DNA of 60,768 bases, counting the filler, from Jimgerdemannia flammicorona (Eukaryota), in assembly GCA_003990765.1 (NCBI GenBank). It is 3 parts of 3 records of this genome, joined end to end, with 100 filler letters (N's around TTAATTAATTAA, not from the genome) between each part and the next. Parts side by side here need not be neighbours in the genome. Positions count along the whole stretch, not along the records: positions 1 to 20,196 come from RBNJ01001738.1; 2 more parts are not named here. The stretch is one strand, 5' to 3'. Position numbers and translations under genes: made by a program. A model generated the notes under the pieces. The model had not been told where the DNA came from and ran no database searches. It saw only the letters and a list, made by a program, of their open reading frames with translations. Below are positions 1-56,165 of the stretch, in pieces. The first letter of the stretch is position 1. Each line of letters starts with the position of its first letter.

Positions 1-308
1 TTTTAACAGACTCAATGTCCCGTGGAATTTGATTGGAAGGGAACCTAGACTATATAGGCCAAAACCCTCCCCCACCACCCATCAAGCACTGCCCACCCAT
101 TGACCTAGGCTAGCTATTGTCCAGCAGCTGGACTATACCAGACACAGCAGGGCCTATGGCAGCCTGCCCCTTATTCTGTGCACCATGCTCTCCCTATTAC
201 CAGGGGAAACCCAACCATATACCAATGACCGAAAGCACATGCCTGAGAACCTAACATATATATAAGACCATACCTGAGCCAAATAGAATAGCCCCTGCCA
301 CCTCAAAG
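1..308 (-). mobile_element. 3' part of non-autonomous poly(A) retroposon 'S' (copy 1), interrupted by LTR element A
   Basis: Reverse complement of the 3' end of copies at 29776-30962 and 59567-60745; window starts in the T-run (A tail); homology stops at TGTAAG of the A LTR. Confidence 0.8.
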
Positions 309-2370
309 TGTAAGAGGGTTGCTTTTTAGAATAACTGTTATATAGTTCTGAAAGGGTTTTCTGGAAGTTCTGGATATTCTGAAAGACCATTTTCTCATGG
401 TCAAGATCAATTTCATATGGAGTATATCCTCTACACTTATTGATTTCAAGATCAGGTTGACGTCTCAACCAAAGTCCTTTTTCGGACTAGTTCTGGATGT
501 TCGGGATTTTCTGTATTTCAGGAAGTTCAAGAAACTAAGACCAGCTTAGTTGAATTGGCATATTGCTGCAGACAATACCCAATTAGGAAATTTCATGATG
601 GAGTTAGGAGTGGGACCTAATGGGGAGCAGATTTACTTAAGAGTGGTTTGTGGGTTATTAAATGGATTTATTCGCTATTCATGATATTGTTATACTAGGA
701 GTAGTTGTGTGAAGGGATATTGTAGAGAAGTATTCAGGAATGTTCTTGTATGTTCGAGTCTGAGATTCTGAGGTCTGGAGGAGGGGGTATTTATACTAGT
801 GAGGGGCTATCTGGATTATGCTAAATATGGATGTAGCACTAAGTGCCTTGCTGAGTCGGAATGCAGTCACGTAGTACAAGGGTGATCTGATATATCAAGA
901 GATTATCTGACTACTGAGTCAGTTCACAGTCATATTGTATAAGGCTAATCTATCTATACTATGACTGCTAGACTATTTATAGGTTTAGGCACTATCTGGG
1001 TAGTCTTCAATGACATCACCATCAATTGCATCATTCCTGATGAAGTAGTCGTCTAGGAAGAGTGGTTTGTGGATTACTTCTCCTTATTGGCTGAGGTAGT
1101 AATACATTGGAACTTCATCTCCATCCCACAGGATAGCATCATCTGTTTCATATACTGGATAAGGTGTTGGGGGGCGAAGGATGGGTGTATTGTCTTCACT
1201 TTTATCGGATTCACTATCTGCATACCTTCTATAGGTTACAGCACTATGAGTCACGGGGTTGTAGTAAGCTGGCAGCTGTGGTTCATCTTACTCGTACTCA
1301 GGTAGTGGAGTTGTTGGTTCGATTTCAAGAGTTGTCTGAAGGTATAGGTTGTGTTCTCCAGTCTCTTCATTGTAGTTGAAGTAATCAGGGGTGAATGCCA
1401 GTTGGTATTCGTGCCTGTGGTCATTGTCTCAATAAGTCTCATATGTGGTTATGAACTGTTGTAAGTTCATCGGCAAGGTTGGCAGTGTGATCAGGGTTGG
1501 CAGGGATCCTTGGCTTGAGGTTATGTCCATGTCAGAGGGATCATTGTCTTCTGCTTTGTCTTCATCAAAGTGGATTATATCATAGATGTCCTTCATGGCA
1601 TATCCAACTTGGAGCATTTGCAGGATGTGATCGTCGGGGTGTGGGAAGGTTCTGTCTGTAGTCTGGACATACTTGAGATATTTGTGGTTGAGTTCTTGTA
1701 TCATGTCATCGATTTGGCCATAGGACAGGGTAGCAACCATTTCGCTGGTAGTAACTCGGAGGCAGGGAATAAAGGTGCTATACTCATAGAAAAGTTCTCA
1801 ATGTTTGCAGGCAATGAGCTTCTGGTGTTGGGACATCTGAGTAATGTCTGTATTGTGGTGGTGTTCGACCATGTCTTCTAGAAGGCGGCTGATCTGGTAG
1901 TAGCTTGAGATTTGTCTAATTCAGTGGGCCTCGCTAAGTATGTTCAGGGCATTCCATCAGGCTTCCACGAAGTAGAGGGATGCTAGGCTATGGATATTCA
2001 TGAGAGGCAGAGGGGGTGTGGCTCAGTTGACAATGGCATTCCAAATATCAGTGCAGATATGGTTATAGATCTTGGTGGTCATGTTTGTGTATTTGGAAGT
2101 TGTGGTTGTTATTTGTTTTGATTCTCTGTTTTGATATATCTCAGTGCTCGGTATATATGCATTTGGTCCTGATTAGTAAGATTCCATTTGTGTACATCTT
2201 GTGTTCTGTGACTTCATATTGACTCAGCTTTGTGAGCTGTGACTTCAGTTTGACTCAGCTTCATGATCAAGCAGATGATTTCCAGATTTGTTTGGAGGTC
2301 ACGTGTGATTTCGGTGGCTTGTTCAGAGGGTGACATGTGATTTCAGTGGCTTGGAGGTTGTGCGCTTACA
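309..2370 (-). repeat. Family A 3' LTR (2062 bp, TG...CA)
   Basis: TGTAAG at 309 and CTTACA at 2370; adjacent PPT at 2371-2384 (AAGAAGGGGAGAGT on minus); homologous to 8891-10501; TATAAATACCCCC box on minus at ~783-795. Confidence 0.92.
985..2082 (-). pseudogene. LTR(U3)-encoded accessory ORF of family A, 365 codons, unknown function
   Basis: ATG 2082 to TAA 985 in one frame with no indel (MTTKIYNHICTDIW...VIEDYPDSA*). Internal stops look like C>T/G>A products; several are sense codons in copies at 9567-10501 and 41443-42014. Includes track ORF 1429-1740. Confidence 0.75.
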
Positions 2371-2794
2371 ACTCTCCCCTTCTTAGCTTTCAACGTTCTC
2401 GTCAGAGCCTTCTAATTTTGTTCTAGTGTTGTTACACCATTTGGGAGGTCAAAAGTCCAGTAAAGTCCATTTTTTCAGAAAGTGGTATGCTCATAGTACA
2501 GTTGCCTAATGCATTGGATTCACACATTAAAGGGTCATGTATTCAATGCCATGCGCTGGAAGTGATTCTGATATCATTCACTGCTGGAGAATTTCCTCTA
2601 AGAAATCTTCTTAAATGTCTATGCCTCGTTTCTCACCAGTGGTATGGGGAGAATAGGCTTGCTTTCAGTTTTGCTATTTTTCTAGAGAGTCAGTATTCTT
2701 GTCTTGTTTTGCTGAGTTTTTTGATTTGTTTATGATAATAATGTTCGGGAGGGTAATATATACTATATACTGATAGGTGTTAGAGTATTTAGAT

Positions 2795-5700
2795 TTCAGT
2801 TGTTTAAGGAATCATATTCCTGAACTAAGTTGGTAGCATTCTGGAGGTTGGTCTTGGGTTTCCATGTGGCATCATGGATCAGGTAACCTTTCCATTTGAC
2901 AAAGTACTCAGGGTGGTTCTTGTTGCCACGTTTGTTGAGGATTTGTTCAACTTCATATTCTTCTTAGTCATTAATAATAACAAGTGCAGGTGGTTCGGTG
3001 GTTCGGTTCAGGAATAGCTTATCATCATTTTCATTGTATTGCTTGAGATGTTGAATATTGAAGACTGGGTGAATCTTAATGGTGTCTGGTAGTACCAATT
3101 TGTAAGAGGTAGGAGAGACTTGTGCAATAACTTCGAATGGTCCAATGAACTTGCTGTTCAGCTTCGTAAATGGTCTGTGCTTGAGGTTGTCAACTCGGTA
3201 TCCTCGGATGTCTAGTAGAACTTTTTCTCTAATATCAAAGGTTTCTTCTTGACAGTGTTGGTTAACATACTGTGACTGTTGTTCTTGAGCTCGTGATAAA
3301 TTCTTGATTGCGATCTGGCTTAGATTATGCATTCAGAGCAGGAATTCTTCAACAGCTTCAACTGTGGAGGGTTCATCAGTATTTCGGATGAGTGTCAGAG
3401 GGGTGTTTGGGTTTTGTCCAGTGTTGGCGAAGAATGGGGTCATTCCAAGAGAGGCTTGCTTGCTGTTGTTATATGCAAACTCAACTGTGGTGAGGTATTC
3501 ATGCCAATCATCCTATCTGTAGGAAACATAGTTCCTTAGCATTTGTTCCAGAGTTTGGTTCATTCTTTCGGTTAGGCTGTCAGTTTCAGAGTGAAAGGCT
3601 GTGGATAGTGCGAGTTTCGTTCCAAGGTGTGCATGGAGGGCTTTCCAAAAATGGCTAGTGAATTTCGGGTCTCAGTCACTAATGATGATCTTAGGAAGGC
3701 CATGATAGCGGAAGATATTGTCAAACAAGAGTGTGGCTATGTCTGGTGCTGTTGCAGTAGTAGTAGTTGGTATAAAGTGGGCTTGTTTGCTGAGATAGTC
3801 CATAAAGACAACAATTGCATCCTTTCTGTTCTTGGTTTGGGGTAGTTGTATAATAAAGTCCATAGAGATTTGTTTCCAATTTGCAGATGGTACTAGGATA
3901 GGGTAGAGTAGGCCAGGTTTTGCTAGTGTTGAGGACTTGTTCCATTGGCAGGCATCACAGGAAGTGATATAGGTCTTGAGCTGATCTGCCATGCAGAGCC
4001 AATAGAAGTTTCAGGAGATAACTTCATATCATTTATCAAATCCTAAATGTCCAGCTGTGGGGGCATCATGACATTCGAATAGGATAGTCCTTCAGAGGTC
4101 TTGGTTGTTTGGGACATATAATCTGTTCTTGTAGTAGATAGCATTATCCTTGAGTTGATACTGATTGTACCGGATATGCTTGTCAGCATCATCACTGTTC
4201 AGGATTTCATAGAGTGCTTGAGCTTCTTTATCATCAGCACATGCTGTGATAATTTGTTCCATGATAGAGTTTGTAACCAAGGTGAGAGTTTGGATGACTT
4301 CTTCAATGGGTGGTCTGGAGATTGCATTGGCAACAATATTTTCCTTGTCAGCATGGTACTGGATTTTATAGTCAAAGTTGGTGAGGACTTTCATCCATCT
4401 GGCTTGCTTTCAAGAAAGGATAGCCTGGGTCTTGATGTTGACTAGTGACTTGTGGTCAGTTAGTACAGTAAAGTGTGCTCCTTCTAGATATGGTCGCCAT
4501 TTAATCAGAGTGTCGACGATGGCTAGCATTTCCTTCTCATAAGTTGCATAATTGATTTCGGCATCATTGAACTTGCAGGAGTGATAGGCAACTGGGTGTC
4601 CTTCTTGCATGAGTATCGCTCTAAGAGCTAGGTCAGAGGCATTAGTAGTAACTTCATATGGTAGAGCAGGATTTGCCACTTGAAGTACTGGAGTGGTTAT
4701 CAAAGCATCCTTTAGTGCTTGAAAGGCAGTATCTTGTTCAGGTCCCCAATTTACAAGGTTGTTGAAGTCTTTTTCTTGTTTTGCGGTCCAGGGCTGTTCT
4801 TTTTCTTGCTGTGCTTTGTCATTTGAGTGAGGGCAGTAGCAATTTTGGTGAAGTTGGCAACAAATCACCTGTAATAGTTTGCTAATCCCAGGAATGACTA
4901 GAGGTCCTTCAGCTTCTTGGGCCTGGGCCAATCCTTGATTGTAGAGATTTTGCTAAGGTCTACTTTAATTCTATTTGGAGTGACAATGTGTCCAAGGAAT
5001 TGAATTTCTTTTAGGAGAAATTCGCACTTGCTGAGTTTTGCAAAGAGTTGGCTTTCTTGGAGTTTCAGTAGTACTAGTTCAAGGTGTTCAAGATGTTCCT
5101 CCAGGGTTTTGCTGAAGACTAGGATGTCGTCAATATAGACAACAACGAATTTGTCCAAATATGGGTGCAGGATAGTATTCATCAGTGTCTGGAAGGTTGC
5201 AGGAGCATTAGTTAAGCCAAAAGGCATAACCAGAAACTCGAAGTGTCCATAGTGAGTTCAGAAGGCTGTCTTGTAGATGTCTTCTTCTTTCATGGCAATT
5301 TGCCAGTAACTATTTTGTAAGTCAAAAGAGCTCATGAATTGTGGGTTGGTGAGTCTATTGAATATCTCATCAATTCTAGGTAGTGGGCAGCAGTTCTTGA
5401 TGGTCTGTTCGTTGAGGTCATGGTAATCAATGCACATTCACAGGTCTCCTCCTTTCTTTACAACAAAGAGGACTGGTGCACCATAGGGTGATATACTGGG
5501 TCTGATGAATCCTTGTTCTAGGAGTTCATCGATTTCCTTTTTGAGTACATCAATTTCTCTCAGAGACATGTGGTAGATTGACTTGAAGGCTGGTTTAGCA
5601 TCTGGAATAGTTTTGATGGCATAGTCTACTGCTCATTTGGGAGGTAGGCCTTTTGGGAGCTTCTTTGGGAATATGTCTCAGAATTTCTGGAGTAGTGGTC

Positions 5701-7927
5701 TGACATGGCTGTTAACTTTGGAAAAGTCTTCTTCAGAGTTCTCAGGTTCTCCTTTGGATGGATGGATAGAGATAGCAAAGAGAGGGAATTTCTTGGCCAA
5801 TTTCTTAAGTTGTAGCTTGTTGATGTGAGTGATCTTTGGTCTGGGGTCACTAGAACTGAGTATGTCCTTTTTGCCTTGCAGCTTGAAGTTGTAGCATTCT
5901 TTCTTGATGGTTAGAGAATGGTTTACCCAATCGATCATGGGGTTCTCTTATTTTAACCATGGAGTCCCAAGGATGATTTCATTATCTGGGAGTGGAACGA
6001 TTTGGAGAGTATTATATACTTGATAATCACCAATTCGGAAGGGCAGATTACAGACTTCTTTACTAATGACATGTGAGGTTCCATCAGCTGTGGCAACTGC
6101 TTGAGTTTGTTGTACTGGAGAGGTGAAGATCTTGAGTCTGTTAGCTGTTTCTTCATTGATGAAGTTGTCTGAGGCACTACTGTCTATCATAATCTTGACA
6201 GGTGCTCGGTTGACAAAAGTCTTAAGTGTGAGCAGTTTGTCTGATCCAATGGTAGTGATTTCGGTTGTAGACACTTTCCTTCTGTTGGTTCTTCTTTGAG
6301 CCAGTTTGTTAACACAAGAGAAGCAATCATCAATCATTTGAGAAGAGTACATTCCAATGCTATGGGAGCATCGGCCACTTGGTACATATCCATCTTCAAT
6401 TTTCTTGTAGAATTGTTCTTCTTTGTTTATGGTAGGTTGGGCTGTGGCCTTGTTTGATGAGCCAAATCCTTTGGATCCTCAGATGGTAGGTAGTAGTTTA
6501 GGGACTTCCTTGACTGTCAAAGTTGACTCAATTTTCTTGAATAAGATCTGGGCAATGCAGAAACCTATGGGGATCTTGAAGAGTGTCCAACTATGGTTTC
6601 GGATGAGGACAATAATTTCACCTGTATAATCTTCGTCAATGACTCCTCCTTCTACTGAGAGTCCTTTTAATGCTAGACTGCTGCGACAGCATATTCTTCC
6701 AACATGTCCTTCAGGAATTTGGATACTGATTCCTATGTAGACTTGCTTGACTTCTCAGTTGGAAACTGTAGCTTCTTCGGCTGCATACAGGTCATATCCA
6801 GCTGCTTTTTAACTTCCTTTGGTTGGGGCCTTAGCAGTTTGTCTTAACTTGACAAAGTCTAGTGTTCTGGTGGTCAGATTGTTGAGGTGGTGCAGAGTAG
6901 TAACAGTTGCTTGTATTGCTGTTCAGGGTTTTTGGTTGGGGCAGGCGCTGGCCATGTGTCCTGTCTTTCAGTAATAGAAGCATGCTCCACTTCTTCGAAG
7001 TTCATTCCTTTTGCCTTCAGTGAGTTTCTTGAAGGTACTTGGCTGCATGGGTTCATGATTTCTGGGTGTCCAAGAGGTGGATGTAGAGGGAGCTCGGGAT
7101 ACTTCATACTTGGGTTTTTCTTTCTTGGTCCAAGTCTTTTCCTTACTATTGAATTGTCTTCAGGGCAGAATTGGTCCAGCTGTTAGGATTCACTTAACCA
7201 TGGTCTTGATTCTTGCCAGGCACTATTGTTGGTGATTGCAACCAACTGGGCAGCCTTGTTCTCAGATTTTTCTAGTAAGCCATTCAGGCAGTGCATCATA
7301 TAAATGGTCTGCTCTTGTACCATTTCGTGCTTCATCATTGGCAATATATCCTAGGCCAACAGTGTTCAGGAGTGACTTGAGTTTTGTACAGAAGGTTTCG
7401 AATTCTTCTTTGCCATATATATCGAATTTGAGGTTATGGAGTTTTACTTGAGATTTGGCAATCATGGTTTCACTGCGATATTGAGCAATCATGAGTTGTT
7501 TGAGTCCAGGGGCTGCAGGATGAGCTCCATATCCTGGGGTATTGTTTGCTGCATTCTGAGCAACTACTGCAGATTGGGTGTCCCATGTGAGGGGTTTTTC
7601 AGGAAGGGTTCGCCACCATTCTTCAGCGGGTCCTCGGAAGAAGGTAACAACTCAGCGGACATAGGCTGTAGTGGTAGCAAAGAGTTGTTCTAGAGTGTGG
7701 TCTTGATTGTTTATCAGAATGCAGTCAGCAACTCGCTCATTGGTCCATTGATTGGCTTCGAAGTTGGTATCAACTACACTAATGAAGCTTTGGACTTCTT
7801 ATACAGTGCCATTGAAGGTAGGTAGGCTCAGATTTTTTGTAGGTCAGGTCTGTTCAGCTAAGGCAGTAATGGTTGCTGCCATTATGGCCACCTGGGCTGT
7901 GAGGTCTAGAATCTGTTGGTTCACCAT
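2795..7927 (-). pseudogene. Family A gag-pol: Gag, CCHC knuckle, dUTPase, aspartic protease, RT, RNase H, integrase, chromodomain
   Basis: IMIDSSASDNFI (PR), [23 protein letters not shown] (RT), TNASDLAL..YEKEMLAIV (RH), ISMDFIIQLP (INT), KFIGPFEV (GPY/F), EYEVEQILNK..YFVKWKGY..DATW (chromo, ~2810-2966). Confidence 0.95.
6455..6865 (-). pseudogene. dUTPase domain within family A polyprotein (between NC and PR)
   Basis: Motifs AGYDLY, GRICCRSSLALKG, GGVIDEDYTGEI, IAQI, (R)GSKGFGSS read by hand. Confidence 0.9.
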
Positions 7928-8875
7928 ATTGTTTACTGGAGGTGGTTGGACTACTGGTAGTAGTGTTACTGTTACTACTTGGGGTACTGGTGCAGAGTGT
8001 GAGAATGTTCTTTGGGTCTGTGTAAGTTGCTGGAGTAGTAGTTGTGGGTCTGGGGTGACAGCTTGATAGATAGCTGTTTGTTGCTGTGTAGGTGTATTCT
8101 GTCCTGATGGATGTGCTTCTCCTTTAGTAGTATGTCTGGGATCAAATTCACTGAGATACTCCTTCTCTTCTTTGGTTTGGTCCCCGTGTAATTAGGTTTG
8201 CTCGGCGTCAAAGTAGATGGAATCAGTTGTATATCTGATTTCAGAAGGACTTAATTCAAAGTCAAGTTCTGGTTCGGTATTAGTTTCAGGTTCAGGTAGG
8301 GCTGTAGCAGGGCCTGCTTCTGGTTCAGAGTCAGATAGTTGATGAAGGGTTTCTCTTGCTTCTTCTTTAAGAATATGGCAGGCCTTGCTGTTCTAGAATC
8401 AGTAGTATAATGCAGTCTTGGTCCTGGTATGGTAGAAGTCGGTAGAGTTGAGCTACTTGGCTACAGAGGCTTGGGCTTCATGAGGAATTATGGCTAGGAA
8501 GACTGCTGCTGGTTGTCCTAGGTCGCTCAGATTTATAGAGCTGACAAAACTCTTGTTAAGAAGAGTAAAGAAGGCTTCAATAAGACCTTCTTTATCTTGA
8601 CTTGCTGGGTATAGTGCAAGGAGTTTGGTGAATAGGGTTTCACCTATTTGCTGGTTTAATCGGAGTACTTCTTTCTTTGAATGAAGTTTGTCCTACTTGT
8701 TGCAGGTGTGGAGGTCAAATTGTCCTTGTACATCAGGTTCAATTCTCTCCAGATTGTCAGATGGTTCAGGATAAATTCCAGCTCAGAGGTTGGGCTTTAT
8801 ACCAACTTATAGAAATTCGCAGAGGGGTTTGTAGCGGGGTGAGGAAGCATCTTGAAGTGGAATTTGGATTGTAAA

Positions 8876-8887
8876 CCGCTGCTACCA
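8876..8887 (-). promoter_or_regulatory. Primer-binding site, probably initiator tRNA-Met
   Basis: TGGTAGCAGCGG 3 nt after the LTR end; same motif in family B at 18848-18859, 24905-24916 and 38390-38401. Confidence 0.75.
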
Positions 8888-8890
8888 AGT

Positions 8891-10501
8891 TGTAAGAGGG
8901 TTGCTTTTTAGGGTAACCATTACATAGTTCTGGAAGGGTTTTATGGAAGTTCTGGATATTCTGGAAGACTGTTTTCTTATAGTCAAGATCAATTTCATAT
9001 GGAGTACATCCTCTACACTTATTGATTTCAAGATCAGGTTGACGTCTCAACCAAAGTCCTTTTTCAGACTAGTTCTGGATGTTCAGGATTTTTCATATTT
9101 CAGGAAGTTCAAGAAACTAAGACCAGCTTAATTGAATTGGCATATCACTGCAGACAATACCCAATTAGGAAATTTTGTGATGGGGTTAGGAGTAGGACCT
9201 AATGGGGAGCAGATTTACTTAAGAGTGGTTTGTGAGTTATTAAATGGATTTATTCACTATTCATGATATTGTTTTACTAGGAGTAGTTGTGTGAAGGGAT
9301 ATTGTGGGGAAGTATTCAGGAATGTTCTTGTGTGTTTGAATCTGAGATTCTGAGGTCTAGGGGAGTAGGTATTTATACTAGTGAGGAGCTATCTGGACTA
9401 TACTAAATATGGATGTAGCACTAAGTGCCTTGCTGAGTTGGAATGCAGTCACATAGTACAAGGGTGATCTGACATGTCAAGAGATCATCTAACTGCTGAG
9501 TCAGTTCACAGTCACGTCATACAAGGCTAATCTATCTATACTATAACTGCTAGACTATTTATAGGCTTAGGTACTATCTGGGTAGTCTTTGATGACATTA
9601 CCATCGATTGCATCATTCCTGATGAAGTAGTCATCTAGAAAGAGTGGTTCGCAGATTACTTCTCCTTGTTGGCTGAGATAGTAATACATTGGAACTTCAT
9701 CTCCATCCCACAGGATAGCATTGTCTGTTTCATATGCTGGATAAAGTGTTGGGGGTGAAGGATGGGTGTATCGTCTTCGCTTTCATCAGATTCACTGTCT
9801 GCATACCTTCTATAGATTACAGTACTATGAGTCACAGGGTTGTAGTAAGCTGGTGGCTGTGGTTCATCTCGCTCGTACTCAGGTGGTGGAGTTGTTGGTT
9901 CGATTTCGAGAGTTGTCTGAAGGTACAGGTTGTGTTCTCCGGTCTCTTCATTATAGTTGAAGTAATTGGGAGTGAATGCTGGTTGGTATTTGTGCTAGTA
10001 GTCATTGTCCCAATAAGTCTCGTATGCAGTTATGAACTATTGTAAGTTCATCGGCAAGGTTGGCAGTGTGATCAGGGTTGGCAGGGATCCTTGGCTTGAG
10101 GTCATGTCTACATCAGAGGGATTATTGTCTTCTGCTTCATCTTCATCGAAGTAGATTATATCATAGATATCCTTCATGGCATATCCAACTTGGGGCATTT
10201 GCAGGATGTAATCGTTGGGGTTTGGGAAGGTCCTGTCTATAGTCTAGACATACTCGAGATATTTGTGGTTGAGTTCTTGTATCATGTCATCGATTTGGCT
10301 GTAGGACAGAGTAGCAACCATTTCGCTGGTAGTAACTCAGAGGCAGAGAATAAAGGTGCTATACTCATAGAAAAGTTCTTGATGTTTGCAGGCGATGAGC
10401 TTCTGGTGTTGGGACATCTGAATAATGTCTGTATCATGGTGGTGTTCGACCATGTCTTCTAGAAGGCAGCTGATATGGTAGTAGCTTGAGATTTGTCTGA
10501 T
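8891..10501 (-). repeat. Family A 5' LTR, truncated by the family B LTR
   Basis: Colinear with 309-1920; ends abruptly at TGTAATAAC (10502). Confidence 0.92.
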
Positions 10502-11317
10502 TGTAATAACTCTCACTTCTATCCCTCTTATCCTTTGGATAATTAGGGAAGTAGACTATTACTTAGGGACTTAGTATACAATGTGTACCAAGAAGCCTTC
10601 AGTTTGAGGAAGCGCTTGCTTAAAGTAGTTGTAGTGGCAGTGCCTTATCTTTCAAAGGTCTTTTTCTGGTTTGCCTTCTGTTTCAAAGGTCTTTCTCTTG
10701 TGTCCTATTTCGAGGGTCTTGTTCTTTGCTGTGCACAGACTGAATTCGCCTTGGAATTCAGGTTCAATGGGTTTACTTAAGTCTTTGTGATTTGTATACC
10801 AGTCTCAGTTCTGGCAGAAGTTAGCTAAGCTTCTGGAGTTTAGTCAGAAACACTAGAGTCACTTAGATATCATTACTAAGACTCAGGGGAATGTGTGTAT
10901 GTGGGGGGGACTTGATTCTTGTATCAAGGACTGAACTAAAACTGCTTTATTTCGAATGGAAACTGGGGGGTATTTATACAAGTTGGTCCATGATTTCTGA
11001 CTAAGTATGAGTGACTAATTTGGTAACTATAATGAGGTTTGTGATCATGACCTTTGTCAGGTGGTTTTTAGCAAAAACAACTTTGTGATCAGGACCTCAA
11101 TTACTAGGCAATGATCAGCTGCTGTGGCAACTGTTACTGCGGCGCCGATTATTGGGAATAAGCTGGATATCATTTTCCATGTTGTTTCGCATTGTTTGCA
11201 TCATTTGTCATTTGTAATTCATATGTTGTGCTTTGTTCATATGATGATGTCATTGCTCGCTGGGTCACGTGATCGCTTGTTGTTCGTCGCATCCCATCTG
11301 TTTGTCATTCTATTATA
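10502..11317 (-). repeat. Family B 3' LTR (B1)
   Basis: TGTAATAAC...TATTATA (element-start TG mutated to TA) followed by a pyrimidine run (PPT on minus). Confidence 0.9.
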
Positions 11318-11328
11318 TCCTTCCCTCT

Positions 11329-12138
11329 TTAGAAATCAACGTTCTCGTTGATTGAGAAATTGAGAACCAGGGGAGAGAAAGGTGGGGAATCTTCCTCAGG
11401 GGCAGGGGGGGTGGTTGTTGCTGATGGCTCACTGTCCAGGATGGAGAAGTCAATAAGGTCTGCAAATGGTTCTTGTATTGGAATAGGTGCTGGTGTAGGG
11501 GTTCTCCATCTGATATGGTTGGGGCCATCCAAGTAGGGCTCTTGATCTTCATGTCTGGGAATATCCATTTGGATAGGTGGTCCTTCAAAGAGGTCAGAGA
11601 GACCTTGGAGCCATTGGTCAGGGTTGTCATTCAGGAGGGGGCTCCAGTAGGGTTCACAGTCAGTAGACTTGAGGGCAATCCAGGAGTTGGCTTCTTGGGC
11701 AACCTTGACTTCTAGGGCATCGACCTCGGGGAAAGAGAGGTTCTGGAAGTTCTTCAGTTATATGTAGTTGAGGTTGGGGATTGTGAAGGGTGCATGGTGC
11801 ATGATTTGATAGACCTTCTCGGCAAGTCTTTGCTCGTACCTATCTAGGTGAGTCCAGTCAGAGACTTGGTCTGTAGGCTGGTCCTTTGCCCATTGGAGGA
11901 GTTAATGGCCAATCTCGTATTCATGCCAGATTTCTAGGCGGCTGGTAGCAAGGTAGGCTCTTTCAATGACTTCACAGTGGTTGAGGACATAGTGTCCTAG
12001 GTCCTGGCTGGAGAGGTTAAGGGCCTCTGAGTGGCGATTCCTTCCTTAGATGGCAACCTAGATATGTTCAAAGAGGTGGTCAACCTGGCTTGAGAGGGGC
12101 TGGCTACAGCAGGCAGTTTGGCGGCAGGTAGCAGGCAT
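11329..12138 (-). pseudogene. Family B 3' accessory ORF3 (269 codons), unknown function
   Basis: ATG 12138 to TAA 11329 in a single frame with a few CAA/CAG-type stops; TATAAATACC ~65 bp upstream (12201-12210); second copy at 32818-33604. Confidence 0.72.
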
Positions 12139-19641: not shown

Positions 19642-19833
19642 CAGGTGCAGTGGGGCAAAGTAGCCTGCACCTCATTCTGTGCACTATGCTCTCCCTACCA
19701 CCAGGGGAAACCCAGCCATACACTAATGACCAAAAGTGCATGCCTGAGAACTCAATGTATGTACAAGGCCATACCTGAGCCGAATAGAATAGCCCCTGCC
19801 ACCTCAAAGAGAATGACAGACAAAGAAAAAAAC
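19642..19833 (-). mobile_element. Fragment of retroposon S (copy 2)
   Basis: Homologous to 139-308 and to the reverse complement of ~60410-60600. Confidence 0.75.
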
Positions 19834-28000: not shown

Positions 28001-31000
28001 TCTTGAAAAAAGGGAAACACCTACTTCATCTGTATAGTACAAGAAGTTACTGAAGCTACAAGTAGTCCAATTCCAACAGAAGCTCAAGAACTATTTGAAG
28101 AATTCCAAGATATATTCCAAGATTCTCAAGGACTCCCACCCAAGCACCAAATCCAACATAGAATTGATCTTATTCCAGGATCTGAACCCCCATATAAGAA
28201 TATCTATCAACTGGCTCAACCTGAGCTCAAGACCCTCAAGGATGAATTGACCAAACTACTGGCCCAAGGATACATTGAATCCAGCTGCTCTCCATTTGGA
28301 GCCCCCATTCTATTTGTCAAGAAGAAGGATGGCTCTCTGCGAATGTGTATTGACTACAGAGCCCTCAACAAGATCACTATCAAGAACTGGTATACCTTGC
28401 CCAGGATTGATGAGTTGCTATACCAAATCTTCAAGGCCAAGACCTTTTCTCTACTGAATTTGTGAAATGGCTACCACCAGATTCTCATTGATGAGAAGGA
28501 CATTGAGAAGACAGCTTTCTGAACACAGTTTGGACTCTACCAGTTCCGAGTCATGCCTTTTGGATTGACCAATATACCAGCAACATTCCAGTATCTGATG
28601 AATGACATCTTTAGACCACTTCTTAACATCTGTGTCCTTGTGTATATTGATGATATACTAATCTACAGTGAGACAGTAGAGCTACACTATACCCATCTCA
28701 GACAAGTACTGACCCTCCTGTAAGAATACCAGCTCTATGCCAAGATGAGCAAATGCAAGTTCTACCAAGACCAGATTGAATACCTAGGACACATCATCTC
28801 TGCTAAAGATATCAATGTAGACCCCCGAAAGGTATCAGCCCTTAAGGATATCCCTATCCCTACTACCCTCAAGCTACTCCAGCACTTTCTGGGTATTGCC
28901 GGTTATTACCAAAGGTTTATCTAAGGATACTCTGCTATTGCAGCTCTATTAACCAGTCTGGCCCACAAAGGAGTGAACATCAATGCTGAATGGACCCCTG
29001 AATATACCCTGGCTATGGACCACCTCAAGAGACTCCTTACTGAGGCCCCAGTGTTAATTGCACCTATCCCTACCAGACCATTCACTCTGATCACAGATGC
29101 CTCTGACATTACTATTGGAGTAGTACTCAGTCAAGAAGACCACCCAGTGGCCTACCTTTCCCAAAAGCTCAAGCCAGCTGAGATCCAGTATACCACTCAT
29201 GAGAAGGAACTCCTGACTATTGTCACTGCACTCCAGGAATGACACCATTTCCTCCTAGGACAGCCATTTGTAGCCTACACTGATCACCATGCACTGCGGT
29301 ATATTCACACACAGCCTATACTGACCCACAGACAAGCCTGCTGGATGGAAATCATTGCCAACTTTGATATGGAAATCAAGTATATCCCAGGCAAAACCAA
29401 CTATGTGGCTAATGGTTTCTCCAGGTACATGGAAGATGAACTTGTCTTCATAGTCGAAGTAATTGGAGATCTTACCCAAATGATCAAGTATGGCTACCAG
29501 CAAGACAGCCCCCTGATGAATTTCCTTCAATTCTACTAAGACCCAGAGGCCGAGGTTCCAGAACCCATGAGGCAAATGGCCAAGAGATTCACCTACCATG
29601 ATGGACTTATCTCCAGGGACCATGACAGAGTGGTTGTATCCAACAATAATACTCTGTGACTCAAAATCATATAGGAACTCCATGATACTCCTGCAGCAGG
29701 ATACTTTGGTTTTGAAAAGACTTACAACCTCCTTTCAAGAAAGTTCTACTGGCCAAAGATGACCAAGGATATCAACAGCTCCTTTCTCTGCTACCTTACT
29801 GATCACAAGGTTTGGTAGGTGACCTTCCAAGTCTCCTTTCCCCTAATATTACCCCCTCTACCTCAGGTTGGTTTGCTGTGCCTGCAGGGACATAGTGGGA
29901 GGAGGGCAATAGTGATGAGTTACCCCTTTATCGGTATCAGATCAGTGCTTCCTCCACTTTTTCATGGATTCTGGTACCTTCAGCTGTGTCTGGGGTGCAC
30001 TCGTTTTGGTGCAGTGCCTTCTTCCTTTTGCCGTCACCAACAAGGAGTTGTCTCGATGTATCTCGGGCTATGTAGGGAGTCAGCCGACCTTGGGCGTCAA
30101 GTGCTCAGTGTAGGTTACCTGCAGGTCCTTGGTGCCTGTAGTGGGGCCCTCTGGCTTTGGCGAGCATCCCGGCGAGCATGGTTCTGGCATAGGTGACTGC
30201 TTTTCAGGTGTTGTCGGGATGGGAGGGGAGATGGCCGTCACAGATAGGTGGAAGGGTGATTACGGTGAACCAGTAGGGTGCCAGGCTGGGGGCAGTTGTT
30301 GGGGCTGGGGCAGGTACTGCTTCAGTGGGGCCTTTTGATTGGTGTGACATAGTTAGGTAGTAGGTGTCACTATTGGCTTCTTTTGGCAGTTAGCAGGGTT
30401 GGGCCTCAGTCATCAGGGGGGGTCAGGAGGCCTGAGGCTACCCATTTCAGGCATCTTGGCTGCACTTAACTGGAACTGGGAGCTGACATGGTAACGTGAT
30501 CGAGACCCACAGGCTTGAGTAGTGGGGTATTGGGGGTTTCCTACTGCCTCACATGTAAGTCCTTTACTCATCTCAACTGAGAGAACCAGGCTCTACCCAC
30601 TGTGTTGTACTTTGATGAGGGTTTTTTATTTGCCTGTCATTCTTTTTGGGGTGGCAGAGGCTATTCTATTCGGCTTGGGCATGGTCTTGTACATATGTTG
30701 GGTTCTCAGACATGCACTTTCAGTCATTGGCATATGGTTGGGTTTCCCCTGGTGGTAGGGAGAGCATGGTGCACAGAATGAGGTATGGGCTTATTAGCCC
30801 TGCTGCGCCTGGCATGGTTGAGCTGCTGGACAATAGCTATCCTAGATTAATGGGGGGGGCAGTGCTTGGTAGATAGTGGGGGAGGGTTTTGGCCTATATA
30901 GTCTAGGTTCTTTTCCAATAAAAATTCATGAGACATGAGTCCGTTAAACAAAAAAAAAAAAAACCAAGGATATCAAAGACTTTGTAGCCACATGCAAGAT

Positions 31001-32817: not shown

Positions 32818-33604
32818 ATGCCTACCACCCACCACCAAACTGCCCACCATAGCCAGCCCCTTCTAAGCCAGGTTGACTGCCTCTTTAGACACATCCAGGT
32901 TGCTATCCAAGGAAGGAAACGCCGCTCAGAGGCCCTTAACCTCTCCAGTCCAGACCTAGGACAGTATGTCCTTGACTGCTATGAAATTATTGAAAGGGCC
33001 TACCTTGCTACCAGCCACCTAGAAATCTGGCATGAATATGAAATCGGTCACCAGCTTCTCCCACCTAGACAGGCATGAGCAAAGACTTGCCAAGAAGGTC
33101 TATCAAATCATGTGCCATATACTCTTTGCAATCCCTAACCTCAACTATGTCCAACTGAAGGACTTCCAGAACCTCTCCTTCTTCGAGGTTGATGAACTAG
33201 AGATCAAGGTAGCCCAAGAAGCCAACTCCTGGATCACCCCCAAGTCCACTGACTGCGAACCCTACTGGAACCCCCTCCTGAATGACAACCCTGACCAATG
33301 GCTCCAAGGCCTCTCTGACCTCTTTGAAGGACCACCTATTCGAATGGATATTCCCAGGCATGAAGATCAAGAGCCCTACTTGGATGGCCCCAACTACATC
33401 AGATGGAGAACCCCTACACCAGCACCTATTCCAATGCAAGAACCATTTGCAGACCTCATTAACTTCTCCATTCTGGACAGCAAGCCATCTGCAACTACCA
33501 TCCCCCCTGCCCTTGAAAAAGATGGTAATGACCCTGAGGAGGATTCCCCACCTTTCTCTCCCCTAGTTCTCAATTTCTCAATCAACGAGGACATTGATTT
33601 CTAA
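32818..33604 (+). pseudogene. Family B accessory ORF3 (B3 copy, frameshifted by a ~44-bp deletion near 33062)
   Basis: Track ORFs 32737-33078 and 33032-33604 join into the B1 frame; TATAAATA at 32746-32753. Confidence 0.72.
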
Positions 33605-33615
33605 GGTGGGAAGGA

Positions 33616-40586: not shown

Positions 40587-41442
40587 AACCAAGACCTGTT
40601 ATCCTTGTACAACCACCGCCACTAAGGACAGCCTTAATCTTACAAGAGATAGAAGTGACGACACCTTGAAACTGATGATGTCGGAAGTCAGAAAACTACT
40701 CAGACTTTGCCAGTGATGATGTCATCAATAGTGATGTCATCAAGGACTAACCAGACAGTGCCTAAACCTATAAATAGCTTAGCAGTTATAGTATAGATAG
40801 ATTAGCCTTGTACGACGTGACTGTGAACTGACTCAGCAGTCAGACGATCTCTTGACATGTCAGATCACACTTGTACTACGTGACTGCACTTCGACTCAGC
40901 AAAGCACTTAGTGCTACATCCATATTCAGCATAGTCCAGATAGCCCCTCACTAGTATAAATACCCCCTCCCCCAGACCTCAGAATCTCAGACTCGAACAG
41001 ACAAGAACATTCCTGAATACTTCCCCAACAATACCCCTTCACATAAATACTCCTAGTATAGCAATATCATGAATAGCGAATAAACCTATTTCATAACCCA
41101 CGAACCACTCTTAAGTAAATCCGCTCTCTGTTAGGTCCTACTCCTAACCCCGTCACAAAATTTCCTAATTGGGTATTGTCTGCAGCGATATGCCGATTCA
41201 ACTAAGCTGGTCTTAGTTTCTTGAACTTCCTGAAATACGGAAAATCCTGAACATCCAGAATTAGTCCAGAAAAGGACTTTGGTTGAGACGTCAACCCAAT
41301 CTTGAAATCAATAAGCGTAGAGGACGTACTCCATACGAAATTGATCTTGACCATAAGAAAATGGTCTTCCAGAATATCCAGAACCTCGAGAAAACCCTTC
41401 TAGAACTACGTAACGGTTACCCTAAAAAGTAACCCTCTTACA
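40587..41442 (+). repeat. CpG-rich (young) family-A-type LTR 3' portion with a divergent upstream segment
   Basis: ~40730-41442 matches the reverse complement of 309-1020 and ends CCCTCTTACA; retains many CG dinucleotides. Confidence 0.85.
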
Positions 41443-42391
41443 AAGCAGAAGACAATGACTCCTCTGATGCCGATATGACCTCTAGTCAAGGATCTCTGCC
41501 AACTCTGATCACACTACCAATCTTGCTGATGAACTTACAATAATTCATAACAGCATATAAGACTTATTGGAACAATGACCACTAGCACGAATACCAACTC
41601 GCGTTCACCTCTGATTACTTCAACTACAATGAAAAGACCAGAGAATACAACCTGTACCTCCAGACAACCTTCGAGATTGAACCAACCACTCCACCACCCA
41701 AGTATGAGTGATATGAATCACAGCCACCAGCTTACTATAACTCTACAACTTATAGTGCTGTAACCTACAGAAGATATGCAGACAGTAAAACCGATGAAAG
41801 TGAAGATGATGCACCCCTCTTTCGCCCACCAACACCTTATCCAGTATATGAGACAGATGATGCTATTCTGTGGGATGGTGACAAAGTTCTAATATATTAT
41901 TATCTCAGTGAACAAGGAGAAGTAATCTGTGAACCACTCTTCCTAGATGACTACTTCATTAGAGATGATACAATCAATGGTGATGTCATTGAAGACTACC
42001 CAGATAGTGCCTAAACTTATAAATAGCCTAGCAGTTATAGTATAGTTAGATTAGCCTTATACAATGTGACTGTGAACTGACTCAGCAGTCAGATGATCTT
42101 TTGACATATCAGATCACTCTTGTACTACATGACTGCATTCTGACTCAATAAGGTACTTAGTACTACATCCATATTCAGTATAGTCCAGATAGCCCTCACT
42201 AGTATAAATATCCCCTCCCACAGACCTTAGAATCTCAGACTTAAATACTTGAACAATCCAAACACAACTCCTGAGTACTTCCCCACAATATCCCTTTACA
42301 CAACTACTCCTAGTATAGCAATATCATGAATAGCGAATAAATCTATTTAATAATCCACAAACCACTCTTAAGTAAATCTGCTCCCCATTAG
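41443..42391 (+). repeat. Older family A LTR fragment, including the 3' part of the LTR ORF (stop at 42014)
   Basis: Colinear with the reverse complement of ~617-1556; truncated at both ends. Confidence 0.88.
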
Positions 42392-45213
42392 ACCAAGACC
42401 TTTAAGTATGATATCTTCAAGAATCTCAGTCAACAAAAGGTCAATGCAACCTTTGGTCAGCTTGCAGAAATCCCAACATTCAGACAGCAAATGAGGTTTG
42501 GACTTGCCGAAACAACCAAGGAACAAGGATGGAAGATAACTGAGGCCAATAATGTTCAAGAGAACTCAGGAGAAGAAAGTGAGGACAATTGCAAAACCTC
42601 TGCTTATGCAATATACCAAATCAAAGATAGAACCTTTGAAGCCATCATTGATATGGGAGCAGGAGGATGTCTCCTCAGTAAGAAGGCAGCAGACTGCCTA
42701 GGTTGGGATGTGGAAGAAGCAACCAAGCTAGTATTCGTCACAGCCAATGGCATAAGAGCTACACCTCTAGGAAAGATCCGAGATGTTCCCATCAAGATCG
42801 GAGGAGCAACAATCCCAATAGATGTAATCGTAACCAATGCCACCAACTATGACATCCTTATCAACAATCAATGGCTTCACAAAGCCAAGGCAGTAATCGA
42901 TCTCAATACCCAGAAGATGCAAATCACCTACTGGGGACAGAAGATATGAATTCCCATCAATGTCAACAAAGGAGTCCTGCCCGATATGGAGGAAGAAGAG
43001 AGCAAGCAAGAGGAAGCTTATATGGTGACTACCCTAAAGAAGAAAAAAGTCAGATGGATGAGTGAAGAAGAATGGTGCAAGAAGATTACAAAAGGCTATG
43101 CCCCACAAGGAGTCTGTCCTCATGGAATCAAGATGTACTATATAGAGCATGTCAATGATTACTATCAGTGCACCATCAGAACCAAGAAGATCTACCAGGA
43201 AAGGAGGCAGAAAGCTCTTGAAAAACAGATCAGAGAGGAAGAGAAGGAGGAAGACAATGAACCACCAGCCCTCCTGGAGGACAGTGATGATGAAGAAGAA
43301 ATCAAGGTCAAGATTCGAAAAATCCACCCTGATGCAGTCTTGCCGGAATACAAGTCAGAAAATGCAGCCAGAATAGACATCGCTACAGTAAAAGAAACTG
43401 TACTGAAACCCCAGACAACCACCCTACTCGCAACTGGACTGGAGATGACCATACCAAAGGATCATGTCGGAATTCTCAAGACAAGAAGCAGCCTGGCTAG
43501 AAGCGAAATTACAATCGAAGGAGGAGTCATTGATTCAGACTATACTGGAGAGATTCTACTCATTGCTAGGAACCACAATTCTACAATTCCATTCCCAGTC
43601 AAGAAGAAGGACCAATTGGTACAGATGTTGATCTTTCCAATCATACAGCCAAGGATCATAGAAGTCAAGAATCTGGAGGAAATGAAAATAGGAAAGAAAG
43701 GATTCGGATCCACAGGAAGAGGAGTATTCACCAGTACCAAGATCACTGAACTCGAGCACAAGAAGGAGGAAAACATGAGCAAGCACAGTTACACCATTAG
43801 AGATGAATTCCCACTCAAGGAGAAACTCAAGAAAATACTCCACAAATTCAAGGATGTCCTTGCCACAGATTTCAAGGATATTAAGAGAAAGACCCTACAC
43901 TACTATCATGAGGTAGATACTGGAGACACTGAACCAATTTATCAGAAAGCAAGACCTGTCCCGCCAGCCTACTGAGAATGGCTCAGAGAAGAAATCAAGC
44001 AGATGGAAGAAGCTGGTATCATCAAAGAAGCCAGCAGCCCCTAGTCTTCACCAGTTGTACTAGCCCCAAAAAAAGGAAGCAAACCTGGAGAATTTGCCCC
44101 AAGGCTCTGTGTCAACTACAGAAAGCTCAATACAGTCACCAAGAAGGATCGCCAACCACTGCCGCTCATCAGCGACATTCTTATAACACTGGGAGACAAA
44201 GCACAGTACTACAGCACCTTGGACTTATACTCAGGATTCCACCAAATCAGACTCACAGAAGTGGCAAGTGAAAAGTCAGCCTTCATCACCCCAGATGGAA
44301 CCTATATCTATCTATAAATGCTATTCGGAATGTGCAATGCACTAGCAAGCTTTCAGCGAATGATGAACAAAATCTTCTACTATGACATGGGAAGATGGAT
44401 GATGGTCTATGTCGATGATGTAATCATCTACAGCAAGATGGCCAAGGAACATCTGCAGCACATACAGCAGATAATAGAGAGACTAAGACAACATGGCCTT
44501 TATATCAAACCCAAGAAGTACAAGTTTGTGGAAATCGAGATCTCCTATCTTAGCCATATCATCAATCGAGATAGAACACACATGGACTCCCTCAAAATAC
44601 AAGTGGTAGCAGCATACCCAAGGCCCACTACTGTCACAGAAGCCCAAGCCTTCATGGGACTTGCCTCCTACTATCGCAGATTCATTAGAGGATTCTCCAA
44701 CATCACAGGCCCAATCTACGAACTCAACAAGAAGGATACCAAGTTCCAGTAGACTGGCATACAACCTCAAGATCAGACTAACTCAGGCACCCATCCTCAG
44801 ACAACCCAATTGGACCCAAGAATTTATCCTTCAGATGGATGCAAGTGCATAAGAACTAGGAGCAGTCCTAGCTCAAAAAGAAGACAAAAAAGAGTATGTC
44901 ATTGCATATCTTAGCTACAGAACCCGAGGGGCTGAAAAAGAATACAAGTCCTATAAGTTGGAATGCCTTGCAGTCATCTGAGCTATGGAAAAGTTCCACT
45001 ACTATCTGGCCAGAAGATACTTCACCATCCAGACAGACCACTCAGCTCTCACCTGGCTACTGACAACCAGACAACCTAAGGGAATCTATGCCAGATAGAT
45101 AATGAAGTTACAAGCCTATGATGTAACCATCGTGCACTGCCCTGGAAGAACAAATTCCAATGCAGATGCTCTCTCACAGATACCTCAAACCACCTCCAAC
45201 CAACAAATCAATC

Positions 45214-46407
45214 ATGAATAAGGAGCTCTACTATGGAATTATCACATACCTGGGATAGCGAAAGATGCCCCAACATCTGGAAGAATGGACACAAATGATT
45301 ATCAACAGGACATAGAAACAATTCGAAACTGATGGAGAAACACTGAAGAAAGGAAAACTACTGGTCATACCAGAACACAAGAAGGAGTAAGTGATGAAAT
45401 CAGTACACGAACTTGGCCATCTAGGAGGAATGAATACATATGACAAGGCAAGAAGAACAATATGGTGGCCAGGGATGGAGGAAGATATCAGACAATTTGT
45501 CAAGACATGCAACAAATGCCAGAAACAGAAACAAGACCAACAGAATCAAGCCCCAGGATCAGCACACATAGAACCAGTACCATTTGCCCATATAGCAATG
45601 GATGTAATCGGCCCTCTACCCTTGACTCTGACTGGTAACTGATACATCATTGTCATCATAGACCTTTTTATGAAGTGGATAGAAGCAGGACCTCTCAAGG
45701 AAGCCAATGCACAGTCAATTGCCGATTTCTTCCACAAGGAAATCATCTGCCAGTTTAAGACCCCAACACAAGTAACTATAGACAGAGGAACAGAATTTAT
45801 GAACCAGCTCTTTGAGGTTCTCTACAAGAAGTACAAGATCCAGCACATTTGGACCACAGCCTATCACCTCCAAGGAAATGGACAAGTAGAAAGGACTAAC
45901 AAAACTCTCAAGAATGTTATCACCAAGATCTGTGATAACTATGAGAACTGGAATCACTATCTGCTAATAGCATTATCTGCTCTCCGGGATATCCAATCAC
46001 AAAGTACCCACTTTACCCCTCGAGAAATGCTATTCGGAGAAGAATGTTCTCAAGGAACCCTATCATCCAATGGAGATGCTGTATGGAAACATGTGGACAT
46101 GGAAATACGGAGACTACACCAAATCAGGAAGAAGGCTGAGGATTACATAACCAAGGTGCAGACACTACAATGGAGGAATGCGGAAAAGACCCACAAGCCC
46201 TTGGAGATTATCAAGATAGGAGACAAAGTCCTAGTATATCGGAATATGGTGGAAGCTTCATGGTCACGAAAACTGGAGCCCAAGTGGGAAGGACCTTACC
46301 TTGTGCAAGATATAAAAGAGACCACCTTTTGGCTATGAAAACCCTCAGGCACAATAATCTCCACCACCATTCACCAAAACTGACTTAAGAAATATCATGG
46401 CCAGTAA
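45214..46407 (+). pseudogene. Family C integrase, apparently a separate ORF
   Basis: Starts at ATG 45214, overlapping the RNase H frame stop (45219-45221); in frame with track ORFs 45391 and 45670; ends after GPY/F. Confidence 0.75.
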
Positions 46408-46858
46408 CAAAAGTACTACAATGGCACTCAAGATCACTAGTGCTGCCCAAAGAGCCATCGAAAGATAATGGCACACCACTGAGCCTCTGACTATAGAGCC
46501 ATACTATGAGGATATTCTGAGTATTGTGCAGACTCATCTCTCTCGGATCTCACACTTTAGAGCCTATCAATATTGGGCAGAATTCCAAGAGTACTTCAAG
46601 CTTGGACAGGTGCTCAATCAGGATCCAGCAAAGACCAAGGAGGACTGAATTGTCGAGTGTCAACTCTTCTACTCACAGATCACTATTGCCAAAAGGATCC
46701 ACAAGTTATTCCGAGAAGATGAAGCAGCAATAGACCACCTGAGAGGAGTAACCCCTACTGACTTCGAGAAAGTGAGAAGACATTATTGGGAAACAGACAT
46801 GCAGCAAATTGTATAGTACAAGACCATACAGACCATTGAAGCCTGGGAGTTTGAATAG
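46397..46858 (+). pseudogene. Family C 3' accessory ORF3 (~153 codons)
   Basis: MASNKSTTMALKITSAAQRAIE...YFKLGQVL...IAKRIHKLFREDEAAIDHLRGVT...WEFE*; three internal stops consistent with C>T; motif shared with the A and B accessory ORFs. Confidence 0.68.
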
Positions 46859-46895
46859 ATGCCTCAAGGATGAGACCATCTATTCAGGAGGAAGT

Positions 46896-47353
46896 TGTGA
46901 CAGTACAGCCAAATTTGGAAGAAGGAAATAGGGAATAGACACTTGATTGCATCCATTCCCAAAGTAGTATAGCCTTATAGTTAGCAGTCCTCGATTTCGA
47001 CATTGTCTAAATTTTAGACATTATCCAAATCGAATACTCCGATTTAGTATAGCATTTAGACATTGTCCAAATATTTCGACAAAGTCCAAATGACTCATTT
47101 ATTACTTAGCCACCCTCTCATAGCTAGCAAACTTGTATAAATAATCCAGTATCTTTGAGTGAATAAACCTCAGATCGAAATAGTTCAAAAGCAAAGAGAT
47201 AGCAAAGGAACTAGTAAGCCTGCAGGCAGATACACTTCGAACTCACCTACTCTCCCCTGCCACTTCAAGAGACTCTGCGAGAGTCAGAACAGTCAAGTTT
47301 TCAAGATACAGAAATCCGACATACTTTCAAGAGTAAGCATCCGCTATGTTACA
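46896..47353 (+). repeat. Family C 3' LTR (458 bp)
   Basis: TGTGACAG...TGTTACA; TATAAATA and AATAAA inside; homologous to 49762-50019. Confidence 0.88.
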
Positions 47354-56135: not shown

Positions 56136-56165
56136 AGTAAAAAATAGTATATTATTAAGCCCTCT

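Follow-up and report, generated by a model that had tools for sequence, protein, structure and literature searches.

Can a fungal retrotransposon carry a whole protein-coding gene within its long terminal repeat (LTR)? The question is raised by a stretch of DNA from Jimgerdemannia flammicorona (assembly GCA_003990765.1), 60,768 nucleotides long with filler and made of three parts joined end to end, which we call the window. Elsewhere, protein-coding genes within an LTR have been described chiefly in retroviruses, for example mouse mammary tumour virus (MMTV), and an earlier inspection of the sequence (the original prediction) had placed a complete 365-codon gene in a 2-kb LTR of this window. 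Self-BLAST of the window revealed a nest of LTR retrotransposons, among which element A, a degraded Ty3/gypsy chromovirus, occupies 309-10502 on the minus strand. We think it probable that the 2.06-kb LTRs of this family (family A) enclose a complete accessory gene in sense orientation, and that the gene was acquired by a shift of the boundary between the polypurine tract (PPT) and the LTR.

The 2.06-kb LTR and its open reading frame

The 3' LTR of element A covers 2062 nt (309-2370, minus strand), and its termini can be read directly: TGTAAG runs from 2370 downwards and CTTACA finishes at 309. One T ahead of the LTR start, the sequence reads as a PPT of 13 purines (2372-2384, minus strand). 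Positions 309-1921 are repeated at 8891-10502 with 91.6% identity across 1613 nt; this counterpart is the 5' LTR (minus strand), followed 3 nt past its end by the primer binding site (PBS) TGGTAGCAGCGG (8876-8887, minus strand). This 5' LTR lacks its outer end: it breaks at 10502, where the end of an LTR of a second family, B, abuts, and no second copy of the outer 449 nt (1922-2370) was found anywhere in the window.

Within the 3' LTR, translation revealed an accessory open reading frame (ORF) of 365 codons plus stop (985-2082, minus strand, the sense of the LTR), running in one frame and without frameshift from an ATG at 2082-2080 to a TAA at 987-985. The whole of the ORF is inside the LTR, and the TATA box TATAAATA and an AATAAA motif lie downstream of it. 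Seven in-frame stops interrupt it (TGA at codons 20, 42, 54, 95 and 218; TAA at codons 265 and 333). The claim of a complete gene goes too far for this copy, which is dead. The original prediction had placed the entire ORF in the LTR by the PPT, the TG..CA termini and homology to the 5' LTR. That homology reaches only over 309-1921 and does not take in the ATG, codons 1-53 or the 288 nt upstream; for these, the evidence is the PPT and TG terminus together with contigs from outside the window.

These outside contigs came from four public runs and were placed on positions 1-3000 of the window at 80% likeness. At 2370/2371, contigs broke into unlike and mutually different sequence (run X3, n = 2; run X2, n = 2; agreement 0.60-0.63). 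At 309, they broke either into PBS-side sequence (run X1, n = 4, agreement 0.93; X3, n = 1) or into varied flanks (run X14, n = 3, agreement 0.59), and this PBS-side sequence at the loose end is the one found in the window at TGGTAGCAGCGG. One X3 contig links 2368 to 1739 (48-nt side), a junction that may be read as one LTR inserted in another. Contigs from the four runs span the ORF region. The contig ends at 309 and 2370/2371 support the LTR boundaries; the contigs are consistent with the termini and are no replacement for full-length copies. Contig depth is unable to rank parts of a gene, and its summed value over 301-2400, 3-5x that of 2401-3000 in three DNA runs, was given no weight. Among the public runs carrying the LTR stretch, none is recorded as RNA; X14 is only guessed as RNA, and from its contigs, which pile up at 401-700 with few over the ORF, we drew nothing. 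Taken with the TG..CA termini, PPT, PBS and repeat, the outside contigs bear out an LTR of about 2.06 kb that encloses the whole ORF.

The ORF is kept in several members of the family: three copies in the window and two open relatives in databases. The 5' LTR copy covers codons 54-365 and is disrupted by a 1-bp indel and several stops; because this LTR lacks its outer end, element A has the ORF in duplicate for codons 54-365 only. The third copy (codons 176-365, 41442-42011) lies in two more family-A LTR fragments recognised by sequence comparison (40716-42391, plus strand), one nested in the other, where the LTR end (CTTACA) of one abuts ORF codon 176 of the second at 41442. Both TATA boxes of the LTR are retained in this nest. 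Directly past the ORF stop, the sequence TATAAATAG (973-981, minus strand) is conserved near 40770 and 42020 in the other copies.

When 1.84 billion representative proteins were searched exhaustively with HMMER, the ORF had three matches (P0003, P0004 and P0005), two of which are relatives. P0004 (128 aa) is open, shares the start Met and is 85% identical over residues 1-128, with Arg at all four N-terminal TGA positions of the window ORF. P0003 (247 aa) is 66% identical over residues 115-365, without stop or frameshift and with the same C-terminus, so that the two open sequences jointly span the frame. P0003 was also the sole match among 352 candidates in a word-indexed search. No DNA locus of a relative was recovered by scans of metagenome contigs (P0001, P0004) or of viral contigs (P0003).

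Each of the seven window stops is matched by a sense codon in one or more of the other copies, so the family frame is open, and the refuting case of a closed consensus frame falls away. Two of the replacements had been named beforehand and were found as described in the 5' copy: CAA for the TGA at 1798-1800 and TGG for the TGA at 1429-1431. The two LTRs of element A differ by 77 transitions and 3 transversions, and of 134 differences counted along the full LTR alignment, 64 stand in CpG-compatible context. Across the window, CpG is depleted (observed/expected 0.16), TpG/CpA is in excess (1.26), TpA shows no excess (0.77) and GC content is 43.7%, so the decay looks like deamination of methylated CpG and not like repeat-induced point mutation. 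Given the transition bias, CpG contexts and CpG depletion, the ORF stops reflect ordinary decay of a methylated repeat. Differences at codon positions 1/2/3 numbered 33/10/47 between element A and the 41442 copy (191 sites each, p = 9e-6) and 31/15/34 between the two LTRs of the one insertion (312 sites each), and the stronger skew of the former fits past constraint on the protein.

The predicted protein is acidic (pI 4.4, 17% Asp+Glu), with about 140 N-terminal residues predicted to be helical and a tail rich in proline and tyrosine. It contains no hydrophobic or membrane segment (maximum Kyte-Doolittle 19-residue mean 0.99); lacking this and a signal peptide, it is not env-like. Pfam returned nothing at threshold for the window ORF (sub-threshold RAMP, 17.2 bits against a cut-off of 27; DUF5338, 13.7 against 25.9), and a profile search of PDB found no relative (best E 0.16). 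The ESM Atlas held no usable match, and the Atlas model has a predicted local distance difference test (pLDDT) value of 0.39. The product is thus an orphan, without Pfam or PDB match or confident fold. Our guess is that it acts in trans as a replication or anti-silencing factor.

The third database match, P0005, is a bacterial-looking repeat protein from an 18-member cluster on contigs up to 138 kb. It matches a 38-residue stretch of the ORF (111-148) with E 4e-6 by way of six repeats. In that stretch (about 1639-1752), a motif around LSYGQIDDMIQELNHKY resembles a 68-residue unit that occurs six times in P0005. We did not accept P0005 as a relative and leave the likeness unexplained; it may be accidental or reflect a small domain common to both.

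Homologous ORFs in sister families and the shift of the LTR boundary

Both of the other dUTPase-bearing chromovirus families in the window have a sense ORF downstream of integrase. The family-B ORF (254 codons, 3 stops; 32840-33604, plus strand; identified by profile and shuffle tests) has a second copy at 11332-12116 (minus strand; by sequence comparison) and one open database relative, P0020 (59% identity). Its stop codon directly touches the PPT at 33605-33615, and the LTR opens with TGTAAT at 33616. In the third family, an ORF assigned by the same tests lies 3' of integrase (46397-46891, plus strand) and finishes at or overlaps a putative PPT (46886-46894), which is followed by TGTGACAG (46896); the ORF may thus extend over the PPT/U3 border. 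For this family the start of the LTR is tentative, because its element (42392-47354) is cut at 47354 by its own inverted copy (42390-43543 matches 48503-47354). A further purine-rich tract stands at 46918-46939, beyond the ORF. An internal ORF between pol and PPT is thus present in family B, tentatively in the third family, and not in family A. The pol of A is 36-41% identical to that of B and 24-30% identical to that of the third family. Neither the B and third-family ORFs nor P0003 and P0004 match a Pfam family. A further family, with an LTR at 59568-60745, may be the one called C in the original prediction; its 3' end is not within the window.

The homology between these ORFs emerges from profiles and shuffles. 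A profile of the A and B N-termini recovered the third-family ORF as its sole match outside A and B under E 0.1 (E 0.014). When one family at a time was left out, a profile of B and the third family found P0004 (E 1.2e-6), and a profile of A and the third family found P0020 (E 1.5e-5). With the third-family sequence as a single-sequence profile against a database of about 1,196 sequences, the best two non-self matches were P0020 (E 0.03) and P0004 (E 0.067). Shuffled sequences reached the observed score in 1 of 2000 trials for P0004 with B, 1 of 2000 for P0004 with the third family and 0 of 2000 for P0020 with the third family; of six negative controls, five gave fractions above 0.4 and one gave 0.023. 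Across families, the alignments stay collinear for about 90-110 residues, beginning close to the start Met, and the C-terminal tails are not alignable (for P0003, the tail, against B, 1360 of 2000 shuffles reached the score). The N-terminal domain is likely homologous across A, B and the third family. The ORFs would then form a small, lineage-specific family of post-pol genes, with an all-helical N-terminal domain of some 110-130 residues and a variable tail. The prediction that homologues lie just before the PPT in two other families is upheld in their position, but plain BLAST does not recover the homology, which profile and shuffle tests alone detect.

As both sister families have the ORF inside the internal region, the embedded layout of family A is most simply regarded as derived. 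In the A lineage, plus-strand priming would have moved to a purine tract upstream of the ORF, and the new terminus, TGTAAG, resembles the TGTAAT of B. One replication cycle from the upstream primer would extend both LTRs by the ORF cassette, and in later cycles both would have carried the ORF together with some 290 nt upstream of it. Less its 1386-nt cassette, the A LTR would measure 676 nt, near the 816-852 nt of the B LTR. We saw no remnant of an older LTR start or PPT past the ORF stop. The original proposal, that a boundary shift captured the gene, is partly supported overall, the ORFs before the PPT in the sister families making such a shift the most economical account.

The 31-nt inverted repeats at 850-880 and 2198-2228 (74% complementary) flank the ORF, and we considered them as the ends of an insertion bounded by terminal inverted repeats. 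We rejected this candidate: the units are tandem on both sides, resemble enhancer repeats and have no target-site duplication.

Several points weigh against this account as a whole. Only one copy in the window has the ATG, codons 1-53 and the upstream region within an LTR, and as the outer end of the 5' LTR of element A is missing, its target-site duplication is uncheckable. The outside support consists of short contigs, from metagenomes and two coded organisms, at 80% likeness. Searching the window with the A ORF by tblastn gave no match to the B ORF, a profile of A alone recovered no sister-family ORF, and the direct comparison of A and B is not significant (BLASTP E 0.10; hhalign probability 0.6%, E 0.09). 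The leave-one-out profiles were taken from an alignment of all three families, which is mildly circular. U3, R and U5 are assigned from motifs. Both AlphaFold2 models are poor (pLDDT 30.3 for the whole protein; 45.9 for the N-terminal domain, modelled with all three families), so that much of the protein may be disordered. Finally, the NG86 dN/dS values of 0.29 between the two LTRs and 0.20 to the third copy are lowered by the 77:3 transition bias and by removal of stop codons, and are weak evidence of constraint.

Expression of the ORF and rival explanations

Motifs in the LTR suggest two promoters, with the ORF and the genomic RNA each served by its own. As had been predicted for about 783-795, a TATA box, TATAAATA, is present downstream of the ORF (788-795, minus strand; read from the sequence) and is the candidate promoter of the genomic RNA; the U3/R border would fall about 30 nt downstream of it, and the poly(A) signal AATAAA (667-672, minus strand) would mark the R/U5 border. 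Genomic RNA would begin past TATAAATA, and the ORF would consequently lie in U3, a placement that rests on the TATA and poly(A) motifs. The TATA-like box anticipated about 70 bp before the ATG was also found: CATATATACC (2150-2159, minus strand) stands 68 nt upstream and is a candidate ORF promoter. Judged by these motifs, the ORF would most likely be expressed from a separate promoter within the first 290 nt of the LTR, made up of this box and two pairs of tandem repeats. One pair consists of 31-nt units, each with an AP-1/Gcn4-like TGASTCA (2199-2260, minus strand; by repeat analysis), and the other of 25-nt units, 32 nt from start to start, near the 5' end of the LTR (2297-2353, minus strand). 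The 31-nt unit recurs inverted at 850-880 and 914-932, past the ORF and ahead of TATAAATA, and outside contigs include length variants of the 25-nt repeat region (at 2287/2319 and 2303/2336). TGASTCA is found 15 times in the window, 9 of these in family-A LTR copies, which cover 8.8% of the window and are not independent of one another. Transcripts of the ORF would terminate at the AATAAA of the LTR itself.

We hold only tentatively that the accessory gene entered the LTR together with its own promoter through a shift of the priming site, which would make each LTR, solo LTRs included, an autonomous expression cassette. This account includes an LTR-borne protein that would act in trans and sister families that would preserve, in the same genome, the stages before the move, with the ORF stopping at the PPT and possibly overlapping it.

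A serious rival to an own promoter is a spliced subgenomic message: the ORF would have no promoter of its own and would be expressed, from the copy in the 3' LTR, as a spliced RNA started at the 5' LTR promoter, and solo LTRs would yield no protein. In retroviruses, the messages of env, of nef and mostly of sag are spliced RNAs from the 5' LTR promoter. The sister-family ORFs, being internal, must use the element transcript or a spliced form of it, and in family A a branch-point-like TACTAAT, a candidate followed by AG sites, stands 60-95 nt before the ATG. Spliced messages for sense post-pol ORFs have been described in barley Bagy2 (PMC7264820). Against this rival, two tandem-repeat pairs and a TATA-like box at a promoter-like distance from the ATG are present in the first 290 nt of the LTR. 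We consider the spliced message possible, short of probable.

It is unlikely, in our view, that the A ORF is unrelated to those of B and the third family, having been captured or having arisen de novo in U3, with its position a coincidence. The non-significant BLASTP and hhalign comparisons given above would fit this explanation, as would the C-terminal 200 residues, which show no similarity (P0003 against B), and the LTRs, where A and B share no nucleotide similarity save an 18-nt match over the TATAAATA box that is itself not significant (E 0.14). It is opposed by the leave-one-family-out profiles, with E of order 1e-6 and 1e-5, by the ranking of A and B proteins as the best two non-self matches of the third-family sequence, and by the collinearity of the alignments from near the start Met.

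Two further explanations we regard as very improbable. The upstream TATA-like box, with its repeats near the 5' end of the LTR, could drive the genomic RNA itself and leave the ORF as first cistron in a very long R/U5 leader, but the canonical TATAAATA lies downstream of the ORF, 118 nt before AATAAA, is kept in other A copies and lies in the 18-nt match to the B LTR (not significant), and we know of no precedent for an R region of about 1.5 kb. A single rearrangement event as the source of the long LTR, or an ORF that is a decaying relic without function in the family, would suit a heavily rearranged locus with a cut 5' LTR, a neighbouring B element without matching target-site duplication and a window copy full of stops; yet independent contigs from other runs have the same termini at 309 and 2370, two open relatives come from other sources (one only 66% identical), and a further nested pair of A LTR fragments in the window bears the 3' half of the ORF.

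Comparison with known systems and the surroundings of element A

The nearest parallel to a gene enclosed in the family-A LTR is sag of MMTV, also a whole sense ORF inside the LTR and upstream of the LTR TATA box, which in family A is the candidate promoter TATAAATA; a gene so placed is present twice per provirus and in solo LTRs. The two share no sequence similarity, and element A, a chromovirus, has no env. Unlike Sag, which is a membrane protein of type II, the A protein has no membrane segment, Pfam family or PDB relative. HIV and SIV nef (of human and simian immunodeficiency viruses), like the accessory ORFs of deltaretroviruses and foamy viruses, follow pol and lie on or over the PPT/U3 border. 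Together with A, the B ORF, whose stop meets the PPT, and the third-family ORF, which may enter it, make up a graded series; compared with nef, the A ORF starts 288 nt inside the LTR and is embedded, not overlapping, and the proteins are unrelated. The Cassandra element, a terminal-repeat retrotransposon in miniature, resembles the proposed layout of family A in that its LTR bears a self-contained gene with its own promoter, duplicated with each LTR, but there the gene encodes 5S rRNA, has a pol III promoter and sits in a plant element that is non-autonomous, and the A ORF is protein-coding. Rfam found no match to an RNA family in the window.

Among LTR retrotransposons, sense ORFs between pol and the 3' LTR (aORF-3S) are described as belonging to the internal region, the env-like ones having transmembrane domains (PMC7264820). 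The A ORF resembles them in being lineage-specific, sense, 3' of pol, multi-copy and without homologues outside elements; it differs in lying past the PPT, inside the LTR, and in having no transmembrane domain. Boty/BcGypsy1 of Botrytis cinerea is likewise a fungal Ty3/gypsy element with an extra orphan ORF, compared here by description only. Its brtn gene is described as antisense, between pol and the 3' LTR (PMC7264820; mentioned in PMC8365987), whereas the A ORF is sense and in the LTR. ORF0 of rice Retrosat2 is given as upstream of gag-pol and outside the 3.2-kb LTR (PMC3485330). No non-retroviral LTR retrotransposon with a protein-coding ORF in its LTR was found in the full-text literature, a search that did not cover subscription journals and is no proof of absence.

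Extra ORFs in LTR retrotransposons are common and poorly understood, and in the accounts consulted they are internal. A whole gene in the LTR has its dose doubled and outlasts the LTR-LTR recombination that removes gag-pol, and a population of solo LTRs could keep providing a protein that helps or polices active copies. Internal and LTR-embedded versions of one gene family, side by side, would be a concrete case of LTR boundary movement. The series from A, B and the third family would suggest how U3-encoded genes such as sag could arise and would offer a testable system for the function of an orphan protein; if true, it would be a stepwise natural parallel, in a chromovirus, to the retroviral series from nef to sag.

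Pfam matches and translation define the internal region of element A (2799-8890, minus strand). One frame holds gag with a zinc knuckle, dUTPase, protease and reverse transcriptase (RT) (4817-8890, minus strand), another RNase H, integrase, SH3_Tf2-1 and a chromodomain (2799-4799, minus strand), and translation shows both to be interrupted by stops. We found RVT_1 (1.4e-31), RT_RNaseH (3e-30), Integrase_H2C2 (1.7e-16), Chromo (6.4e-14) and, between gag and protease, dUTPase (3.7e-31); rve (1.1e-6, 29.3 bits) was under its cut-off of 32.6. The element has the chromovirus order of protease, RT, RNase H and integrase with a C-terminal chromodomain. Its LTRs are direct repeats of the TG..CA type, the 5' one lacking its outer end, with a PBS following the 5' LTR and a PPT preceding the 3' LTR. 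Element A thus belongs to the dUTPase-bearing Ty3/gypsy chromoviruses, and this copy is old and dead.

The family-B element that adjoins it (B1) has unlike flanks at 10497-10502 and 19642-19646 (ctgat and caggt) and hence no target-site duplication, which indicates that the junction at 10502 is a rearrangement and not a clean insertion. B1 is probably a recombinant of two B copies, which would also account for the lost outer end of the A 5' LTR. A fourth LTR family, of about 1.18 kb, is represented at 1-308, 19642-19833, 29781-30957 and 59568-60745; the copy at 29781-30957 is a solo LTR inside a B element, and another stands at the right end of the window. Two overlapping fragments of this family flank the block of A and B1 (161-315 is about 86% identical to 19662-19816), so the block is not a simple insertion into one LTR. 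At 56148-58245 (plus strand), two long overlapping ORFs of 351 and 393 codons, without Pfam family, are encoded on the other strand from the neighbouring RT (53910-54446, minus strand) and may be antisense to the gag of the element with the LTR at 59568-60745.

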